Positions 58,341-60,440 of a stretch of 64,000 nucleotides of DNA are shown piece after piece. A program made the position numbers and the translations under genes. Positions within the stretch are counted from its first letter, which is position 1; each line of letters opens with the position of its first letter. This stretch comes from Eledone cirrhosa (lineage: Eukaryota). The notes beneath the pieces are model-generated. The model was not told the DNA's origin. It was given only the letters and a program-made list of their open reading frames with translations, and did no database searches. The stretch spans positions 24,428,001 to 24,492,000 of the forward strand of contig OZ024750.1 in assembly GCA_964016885.1 (NCBI GenBank). The letters run 5' to 3'.

Positions 58341-59372
58341 ATGTGTATATATTTGTATGTACGTGTGTGTATTTGTATGTATGTGTGTGTATTTGTATGT
58401 ATGTGTGTGTGTGCATTGTGTATATATGTATGTATTGTCTGGTTTTGTATGTTTGTGTCTTTGTATGTATGTATTTTTGTATGCAAGTGTTTTTGTATGC
58501 ATCTGCCTTTGTTTGTATTATTGTGTTTGTATGTGTGTGTATTTGTATATATGTGTATTTGTATGTATGTGTATGTATTTATATGTATGTGTGTATATTT
58601 GTATGTATGTGTGTATGCTTGTATGTATGTGTATGTATTTGTATGCATGTGTGTATGCTTGTATGTATGTGTATGTATGTATGTGTGTATGCCTGTATGT
58701 ATGTGTGTATGCTTGTATATATGTGTATGTATTTGTATGCATGTGTGTATGCTTGTATGTATGTATGTGTGTGTATTTGTATGTGTGTGTACTTGTATGT
58801 ATGTGTATATGCTTGTATGTATGTGTATGTATTTGTATGCATGTGTGTATGCTTGTATATATGTGTGTGTATGTGTGTATGCCTGTATGTATGTGTTTGT
58901 ACTTGTATGTATGTATGTATGTGTGTATGCTTGTATGTATTTGTGTGTGTTTGTATGTATGTGTGTGTTTTCTTTGAGATTTATATCAGTTCTACTTCAC
59001 AAGACAGTTCCAAAGATGTGTAAATATGTGAATGAGTTAGTATGTGTGTGTGTGTGTAATTATGTGTTAATGTGTCCATGTATGACTTAGTGTGTACATA
59101 CATGTACGTATGTATGAGCTACTGTCTACATATATATATATAACCTATGCTAGCATGGAAGATGGACGTTAAATGATGATGATGATGATATATATATATA
59201 TATATATATGTAGAAGTTCTATTTAAATTGTTGGGATACAACAAGCAAATATTTTTATAACTGATATAAAGCACTCAACAAATAATTGGGAGACTATCCG
59301 GGAGCTTCCAACAGTAATGGTCGCATTCTTTAAGGGTATGTCAATATTTATTTATAAAACTGCTCTATATTA

Positions 59373-59437
59373 TATTTTATCTGATGAAAGCACACCATAA
59401 TTTAACTTGGTGTCCTTGAAATATGTATAATGAAATA
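59373..59437 (+). ncRNA. Type I hammerhead ribozyme motif
   Basis: TATTTTAT-CTGATGA-[AAGcACACCA...TGGTGTcCTT]-GAAA-TATGTA-TA-ATGAAATA. Core intact; stem I has one G-U pair. Confidence 0.72.
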
Positions 59438-59499
59438 AATATGGTTTTATAAATATAGTTTCCATTTGTTAATATCGTATATATATATATATATATATA

Positions 59500-59833
59500 T
59501 TTCAATAATATTAATAAATGGAAACTATCTTTATAAAAAGATATTTATTTTATTATATATATTTGGCACCAGATAAAATACAGACAGTGACATATTCAAT
59601 ACTAGAACTTAGTGTTTTGAGTTCTGTTTGAATAGTATTCAAACAGAACTCAAAATACTATTCAAACAGAACTCAAAACGCTAAGTTCTTGTCTTGAATA
59701 TGTCACTGTCTGTAAAACAACTTTTGTATTTTATCTGATGAGGGCGTACCAAAAATGTTGGTACCCTTGAAATATATATAATAAAATAAATATGTTTTTA
59801 TAAAGATAGTTTCCATTTATTAATATTATTGAA
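59500..59833. repeat. Fold-back with a nested central palindrome, part of a hammerhead-bearing complex (~59210-59920)
   Basis: TTCAATAATATTAATAAATGGAAACTATCTTTATAAAAA.../...TTTTTATAAAGATAGTTTCCATTTATTAATATTATTGAA. Centre TTTTGAGTTCTGTTTGAATAGTATTCAAACAGAACTCAAAA. Confidence 0.8.
59727..59788 (+). ncRNA. Type I hammerhead ribozyme motif
   Basis: TATTTTAT-CTGATGA-[GGGcGTACCAA aaatg TTGGTACcCTT]-GAAA-TATATA-TA-ATAAAATA. Core intact, perfect stem I, palindromic stem III. Confidence 0.8.
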
Positions 59834-60440
59834 ATTATACTCCAGAAGAAACTTGTAGAGTGCTTCTAATCTGTTATAAACTGTTGAATAACCAACAAGT
59901 TAAATAACTCATTGCTTATATATATATATATATATATAAATAATTACAACAGTGGCATATATATATATGTGTGTGTGTATGTACTTGCACTCATGTGTGC
60001 ACACACATGCACACACACACACATGTATATATATATGCATGTATTATGCACTTACAAATACATAAGATGTATTCAGTGATACCAATCTAATTCTGCTGCT
60101 TTTGAAAATACCATAAACCACCCTTAATGTCACGTCTCTGGTTGCTATGGTAACCATCATTAATAGCATATTCGTAGTTACTATAGCTACCATCAATAAA
60201 ATGTTTACTGACTATTTCTCTCCCACCCCCTCACTTCACCAATTGGTAGTGTCAGATCTAAATTGATATTAGGTAGGATTTAATAGCAAAATGTCCTCCA
60301 TAAATAATTAACAGAATAATTAGCAAAGATGATGAGTTGTAGTTTAAGGCTAATTATTTCCAAGTCAGTGGGTGAAGTGGCAGAGTCGTTAGAATATCAG
60401 ATAGAATATTTTATGGTATTTGTCCCAGCCATCTGTGCTC

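Follow-up and report, generated by a model that had tools for sequence, protein, structure and literature searches.

Two same-strand hammerhead motifs in an intron of ANO8 in the octopod Eledone cirrhosa very probably lie in the 3' ends of truncated copies from two distinct, high-copy families of Penelope-like elements (PLEs). These families are likely to belong to the Hydra clade, and the two copies likely inserted successively and back to back in one (TA)n tract of the intron, with the 351-nt spacing between their cut sites likely accidental. The PLE identity explains the hammerhead motifs, the inverted copy between them, and the TA flanks together. The locus is ordinary, i.e. a pile-up of two truncated retroelement ends. 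All coordinates refer to the window, the whole 64-kb stretch of an E. cirrhosa contig that was analysed, and HH1 and HH2 denote its first and second hammerhead in the intron (Table 1).

HH1 and HH2 are real hammerhead motifs of a known class, and their self-cleavage is a prediction. The original prediction placed two intact hammerheads here, sense to ANO8, and every part of both is present. In each, the core (CUGANGA, GAAA, and UH) is joined by stems I, II, and III and is open at stem I. Specifically, HH1 has CTGATGA at 59381-59387, GAAA at 59418-59421, the 6-nt loop TATGTA, and U16.1 at 59428, with stem I formed by 59373-59380/59430-59437 and the predicted cut after A59429. HH2 has CTGATGA at 59735-59741, GAAA at 59769-59772, and the loop TATATA, with an 8-bp stem I (59727-59734/59781-59788) and the predicted cut after A59780. 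The cut-to-cut distance is indeed 351 nt, the stem II sequences read as had been quoted, and the 28-kb copy used for comparison is present. The distal stems II of both motifs are well populated in folding. Stem III has 1-2 bp as a monomer and 8 bp as a dimer, in line with the earlier suggestion that such minimal hammerheads can pair through this stem. The motifs are not due to chance, because their pattern is matched exactly at 39,900 (20,137 + 19,763) places in the 3.0-Gb genome, whereas the reversed pattern, used as a control, has 0 + 0 matches. A search of the whole window with Rfam at the gathering threshold returned 0 matches, including to the hammerhead models, and the HH1 and HH2 variants therefore fall below the curated models.

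The proposed ANO8 host intron is borne out by the identity of the exon at 61926-62173 (Table 1; 7 matches to octopod ANO8 among 18 candidates) and by in-phase donors upstream, while a Pfam search with the exon peptide gave no useful match. The candidate first exon at 54491-54570 has 81% identity (E 1e-9) to ANO8 X3 of O. bimaculoides at the N-terminus. A second first-exon candidate at 9487-9718 has a weak ANO8 match (E 3e-4) and an in-phase GT donor. The two candidates lie ~45 kb apart, match the N-termini of different database isoforms of ANO8, and are each in phase with exon 61926, so the hammerheads are sense and intronic. The acceptor is found 2.15 kb downstream of the second predicted cut. 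The same intron also holds a tandem array of a 16-nt unit (60441-60660).

Table 1. Features of the window discussed in the text, in order of position.
Feature	Position	Strand	Remarks
Fold-back insertion of a third related subfamily, between (TA)n tracts	27730-28205	.	Two intact hammerheads
ANO8 alternative first coding exon (candidate)	54491-54570	+	GT donor 54571
(TA)n tract, left end of element 1	59188-59209	.	
Element 1, inverted 80-nt tail	59210-59289	-	B end, ~140 nt past the cut position
Element 1, 5'-truncated tail-less 3' end	59293-59477	+	A end, ~50 nt past the cut; PLE family 1
HH1	59373-59437	+	Type I; 8-bp stem I; C-C mismatch in the long stem II; stem III loop self-complementary
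Central (TA)n tract	59478-59500	.	Meeting point of both insertions
Element 2, inverted tail-less copy	59499-59639	-	A end; hammerhead stem II and core deleted
Element 2, 5'-truncated 3' end with tail	59640-59915	+	B end; PLE family 2
HH2	59727-59788	+	Type I; architecture as HH1
(TA)n tract, right end of element 2	59917-59938	.	
ANO8 conserved coding exon	61926-62173	+	94-95% identity to octopod ANO8

Element 1 occupies 59210-59477 and element 2 occupies 59499-59915, and all of their outer ends abut (TA)n. The two share 130 of 169 aligned bases, and neither copy holds an ORF. An inverted third copy that had lost its core was predicted at ~59545-59580; the loss of the core is confirmed, and the copy itself is longer, spanning 59499-59639. 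Of 141 bases aligned between this copy and element 2, 136 agree; deletions of 14 and ~27 nt have cost the copy its stem II and disrupted its core. A 23-nt duplication (59631-59653/59654-59676) sits at the element 2 inversion point. The element 1 tail (59210-59289) is 96-99% identical to those in loci L067, L121, L122, and L123, and in long copies it also stands just upstream of the ORF. A reading in which element 1 points to the minus strand was dropped, as the long copies show that the tail can stand at either end.

The two elements differ in their divergence from relatives. A query with 59290-59477 found 39 other best places at 99-100% identity (40 scored of 873 candidates), whereas the best relatives of 59700-59915 are at 91-93% (40 scored of 3654 candidates). 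HH1 and HH2 thus come from two subfamilies, and the same difference suggests that element 2 was probably first and that element 1 would then have used its left TA flank. We infer these two separate events, and their order, from sequence comparison; no empty-site allele was seen. Among contigs from the runs of one sample (kind not on record), none bridged the locus, with joints at repeats dropped.

Each insertion consists of a forward 3' end and an inverted copy; of the two, one extends ~50 nt beyond the cut position and the other ~140 nt, and both stop against (TA)n. Here, we term the tail-less ~50-nt end A and the ~140-nt end with tail B. Among loci chosen by queries that favour one end, family 1 (29 loci) has 19 divergent pairs, comprising 18 A+B and 1 B+B, together with 10 single ends (5 A, 5 B), while family 2 (28 loci, leaving out L011 as a duplicate of L010) has 16 pairs, of which 10 are A+B and 6 combine B with an end elsewhere, and 12 single B ends. 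A+A pairs are absent from both sets. Repeats of TA or of a related kind adjoin nearly all A and B ends. In the window, the order is B+A and then A+B, which corresponds to two complete insertions. Exceptions to the A+B combination are L058, which is B+B, and the 28-kb element, which looks B+B by eye.

Longer copies elsewhere in the genome link these ends to coding sequence. For example, L067 has ends 98-99% identical to element 1 and carries an interrupted RT/endonuclease ORF, and L031/L034 have family-2-type ends (92-93% to element 2) with a broken, related GIY-YIG coding sequence upstream. An ORF with RT and C-terminal GIY-YIG motifs is found in L067 and L120-L124, and is longest in L122 and L123, where it is uninterrupted and encodes 742 aa from the first Met. 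The ends compared in four of these loci (L120-L123) are 86-91% identical to element 1, which makes them a sister subfamily. In L122 and L123, a pseudo-LTR precedes the ORF and its tail runs into the 5' leader. The L122 3' end lies 1.9 kb past the stop, tail-less and with a hammerhead, against (TA)n, for a unit of ~4.3 kb. The RT segment of L067 has 30,350 candidates genome-wide, and all 150 that were scored are at 88-100%, several of them in open frames >700 aa. Beside one family-1 copy stands a transposase reading frame (L066:4348-5445), which by its motifs we take to be Tc1/mariner-like.

The L122 protein has 208 homologs, the best 120 of which are at 31-48% identity and mostly unnamed, with RVT_1 in one of these 120 (P0096). 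Pfam found no RT or GIY-YIG match in the whole L122 protein and no useful match in two L031 and four L067 pieces, and a PDB profile search with the L122 alignment gave 0 matches at E <= 1. The identity of the protein rests on homologs and motifs, because Pfam and PDB give no direct match for L122; of 30 relatives, 2 have a Pfam GIY-YIG match, the better at E 4e-4. In an alignment of L122 with 29 homologs (n = 30), RW[KR]A is present in 17, DK[TS] in 29, YRDD in 30, CxCx5C in 24, Y[IV]G in 23, CxxCxxE in 30, and LN..CxH in 23. L122 itself has all of these motifs (RWR37, SDKT117, YRDD, CxCx5C601, YVG, CxxC699, and LN..CxH716) and no DKG.

These motifs, rather than a tree with reference Hydra proteins, make placement in the Hydra clade likely. 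In the available text of PMC8557442, the clade is defined by RWK, DKT for DKG, CxCx5C, CxxC, CxH, canonical hammerheads, and (TA)n targets, while 5'-truncated copies in inverted orientation and a tail at a single end are given as features of PLEs in general. A further mark of the clade is an endonuclease that lacks the CCHH motif; here the conserved C/H columns of our alignment fit the published account, a comparison made with the description and not with CCHH-bearing PLEs. The Eledone elements resemble the C-terminal EN+ PLEs of the clade in their single RT and C-terminal GIY-YIG ORF, in the RWK-like, DKT, CxCx5C, CxxC, and CxH motifs, in the hammerhead near the 3' end, in (TA)n insertion (seen in families 1 and 2), in inverted 5'-truncated copies, and in the tail at one end only (PMC8557442). 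By contrast, the ~4.3-kb L122 unit, with its ~1.9-kb 3' region, exceeds the <3 kb that the same text gives for Hydra elements as a tendency, not a rule. The tail is ~85-90 nt, against 30-40 bp described there for PLE insertions, and the long stem II keeps a C-C or C-U mismatch at its position 4, a further difference from the clade as described (PMC8557442). For Hydra-1_Obim of Octopus bimaculoides, that source gives a hammerhead sequence unlike the present ones (supplement S2), and the Eledone elements are therefore other families.

The hammerheads are also like those of the PLE pseudo-LTRs in the available part of PMC4209133, being type I with a long helix II and a palindromic, weak helix III, and the elements share with the PLEs of that study their thousands of mostly single, truncated copies, close opposite-strand pairs, and subfamilies with compensatory changes. 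They differ in the 8-bp stem I and in a stem III with a 6-nt self-complementary loop rather than none. The 39,900 exact matches exceed the 2,000-9,000 min-HHR counts given there (PMC4209133); for axolotl, 126,247 type I motifs are reported in another paper, as far as its available text goes. A literature search returned no paper on these octopod families or on this locus, and it left Repbase and Dfam uncovered, so that the families may already be catalogued. The passages concerned mention hammerhead matches in giant squid without a link to Penelope-like elements (PMC6962438), and Penelope-like families in O. vulgaris without a link to hammerheads (PMC13282606). Within the reach of that search, families 1 and 2 are new, in what is likely a known PLE clade.

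Other origins for the layout were weighed against two stacked insertions. A single complex event could have built 59210-59915, either by template switching between two subfamily RNAs or by local inverted duplication at the TA tract, and some loci invite this view: A ends meet at a central TA tract in the window, L013, L054, and L100, and in L013 the first forward copy has private variants in common with the inverted copy, an indication of local mirror duplication at some loci. In the window, however, the inverted copy follows element 2 (98% over 66 nt) and not element 1 (85%), the elements differ in divergence from their own families, and each half alone is a complete A+B insertion, and we find a single event here very unlikely. 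The original prediction favoured a retrozyme-like unit, and if this were a true non-LTR retrozyme, the 351 nt would be a mobile monomer, released in linear or circular form and re-inserted. Its length is within the published range of ~170-400 nt (PMC7229834, in the part available), HH1 and HH2 have intact cores, their stem III loops could form 8 of 8 pairs, and retrozymes are reported as derived from PLE ends in the available text of 10.64898/2026.07.22.740005. As in the animal non-LTR retrozymes described in parts of PMC7229834 and the Li et al. 2026 preprint, same-strand type I hammerheads lie a few hundred nt apart in low-GC, noncoding, PLE-related sequence. Non-LTR retrozymes are defined in those parts of PMC7229834 and 10.64898/2026.07.22.740005 as direct tandem repeats with a hammerhead per unit, whereas this locus is not a direct tandem repeat: HH1 and HH2 belong to two PLE families, their surroundings share only ~106 nt at 83%, and the interior of the 351 nt is the inverted copy plus a microsatellite.

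Nor does the would-be monomer form a multi-copy family among the places scored. With the 351 nt as query (cut to cut), no other end-to-end place was found among 40 scored of 1828 candidates, and the best other place covers bases 49-350 at 80%; unlike the animal retrozymes, the unit is known here from DNA alone. The arrangement of hammerheads elsewhere argues the same way. Across 65 sources (64 loci plus the window, after 13 of 77 loci were dropped as duplicates), there are 119 hammerhead-like copies, 108 with an intact core and 11 with the core lost, and pairs within 1 kb include 47 on opposite strands, against same-strand pairs in only 5 sources, all differently spaced (354, 371, 467, 475-919, and 620 nt). 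The first 100 listed of the 39,900 motifs include 12 divergent and 3 same-strand pairs within 500 nt, the latter at 206, 306, and 425 nt and each with a TA tract between the hammerheads; uniform placement expects 0.33 same-strand pairs in those 100 (p 0.005). L100 repeats the four-part layout of the window with other subfamilies. We thus regard a 351-nt retrozyme as extremely improbable and retain two stacked insertions as the origin of the pair.

Stacked passengers could nonetheless be active, with HH1 or an HH1+HH2 dimer cutting often enough to free a 351-nt RNA or to affect splicing of the 7.4-kb intron. This was assessed on the transcript 59340-59850 with secondary-structure estimates, which ignore tertiary contacts, proteins, and kinetics. 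The inverted copy (59499-59639) is predicted to pair with 59654-59714 and 59770-59835, with 63.8 expected pairs to the 3' half of HH2 and 0.6 to HH1, and the probability of HH2 stem I is 0.0 in the folded transcript. Forcing the active folds costs +2.4 kcal/mol for the HH1 monomer, +24.9 kcal/mol for the HH2 monomer, and +46.7 kcal/mol for the strand-swapped dimer. HH1 stem I has P ~0.6 in some transcript prefixes and in the full piece, and is also lost in prefixes ending at 59565-59790. Activity would be favoured by the sense orientation of both motifs in the ANO8 transcript, by the low cost of the HH1 monomer fold, in which stem I is already populated while the inverted copy has yet to be transcribed, and by thousands of sister motifs that could partner in trans. 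The high costs of the HH2 and dimer folds stand against it, as do published assays: metazoan PLE hammerheads with a weak helix III show no monomer cleavage and low dimer cleavage in the available part of PMC4209133, according to which such hammerheads need a dimer and cleave poorly in vitro, and 8 of 9 Xenopus dimers were without cleavage, i.e. cleavage occurred in 1 of 9, in that of 10.64898/2026.07.22.740005. Such activity at this locus therefore seems unlikely to us. In ANO8 pre-mRNA, HH2 would instead be trapped by its own inverted copy, double cleavage would be rare, and the locus would be a passenger, an inactivity that we infer from the modelled folds.

Runs from the same sample, the kind of which is not on record, contain 59780-to-59434 joints and ~350-nt "skip" joints, and these most likely come from sister copies. 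Because sister copies give such joints, the junction test suggested with the original prediction would be confounded, and reads over the junction are not by themselves proof that a circle comes from the ANO8 locus. In a run guessed to be RNA, only short pieces were placed, left of 59190.

The original prediction also read the differing stem II sequences as a sign of selection on structure, and the proposed check across genomic copies did reveal compensatory changes. A MAFFT alignment misregistered stem II between the long and short subfamilies, and a core-anchored count was used instead. Among 81 distinct stem II sequences, 92% of pairs at eight positions can form, vs 80% when shuffled (maximum 84%; 1000 shuffles), and Watson-Crick pairs make up 81% vs 62%, values that are descriptive and carry no probability since the sequences are related. 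Compensatory swaps (T-A/C-G, C-G/A-T, and G-C/A-T) occur at 6 stem II positions, and of 94 distinct motifs, 85 have a stem III loop that is self-complementary throughout. Position 4 keeps a C-C or C-U mismatch in 73 of the 81 sequences while the surrounding pairs covary, and is possibly a tertiary contact or a protein site. Selection on structure is thus upheld for the parent elements and between subfamilies, and not for the ANO8 locus. The letters of HH1 recur unchanged in 24 of 29 family loci (those of HH2 in 2 of 29), and because the covariation is between subfamilies it is uninformative on a role in ANO8; with this identity and the core lost in 11 of the 119 copies, selection at the locus cannot be shown. 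The hammerhead fold would be kept by selection on active parent elements, where, judging from the literature, it would process precursor RNA as a dimer via the self-complementary stem III.

Other hammerhead-bearing copies are found in the window and beyond. The insertion at 27730-28205 carries hammerheads at 27846-27923 (-) and 28001-28083 (+), with the stem III loop TGCGCA; the former is an additional intact motif, absent from the original prediction. Both ends of the insertion seem to carry the tail, and its subfamily supplies more of the first 100 listed genomic motif matches than any other. At 13706-13720, 46850-47430, 21973, and 35854, the window has inverted-repeat elements with CTGATGA and, by eye, no matching GAAA or stem III, which are possibly degenerate or different hammerhead-bearing repeats. 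L013:1150-1740 shows a forward-inverted-forward family-2 layout that suggests mirror duplication around a TA tract and not two insertions. At L125:400-1400 (minus), two tail-less ends of the same subfamily lie in direct orientation, 206 nt apart with (TA)n between, and are the closest we saw to a tandem, retrozyme-like dimer. Seven near-identical family-2 matches recur every ~125-180 kb along G000:C4:203820239-204679810, which suggests a large tandem segmental array.

For genome scans, these observations carry a caution: in genomes of this kind, two same-strand hammerheads separated by a few hundred bases result from repeated insertion into TA tracts and are not a sign of a retrozyme. Re-targeting of TA tracts beside earlier copies may have produced about a thousand accidental same-strand pairs in this genome, a figure (rough range 250-3,400) extrapolated to all 39,900 motifs from the 3 pairs in the first 100. 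Some of these accidental pairs, possibly the one in ANO8, could act as dimers that cleave host introns or set small circles free. We give this scenario only a slight chance; if true, accidental pairs would burden octopod pre-mRNAs and be a lasting source of new retrozymes. Two-site priming on an RNA that is circular or longer than one unit, and produced by hammerhead cleavage, would also be compatible with the fixed A+B ends. What PLE hammerheads do is called unclear in the available text of PMC8557442, and if two-site priming is true, their role would be testable in a very young family. With its 742-aa ORFs, ~40,000 motifs, and two sharply defined ends, this very young, high-copy, Hydra-type group of octopod PLEs is good material for the study of the PLE insertion mechanism and of the role of the hammerhead in it.
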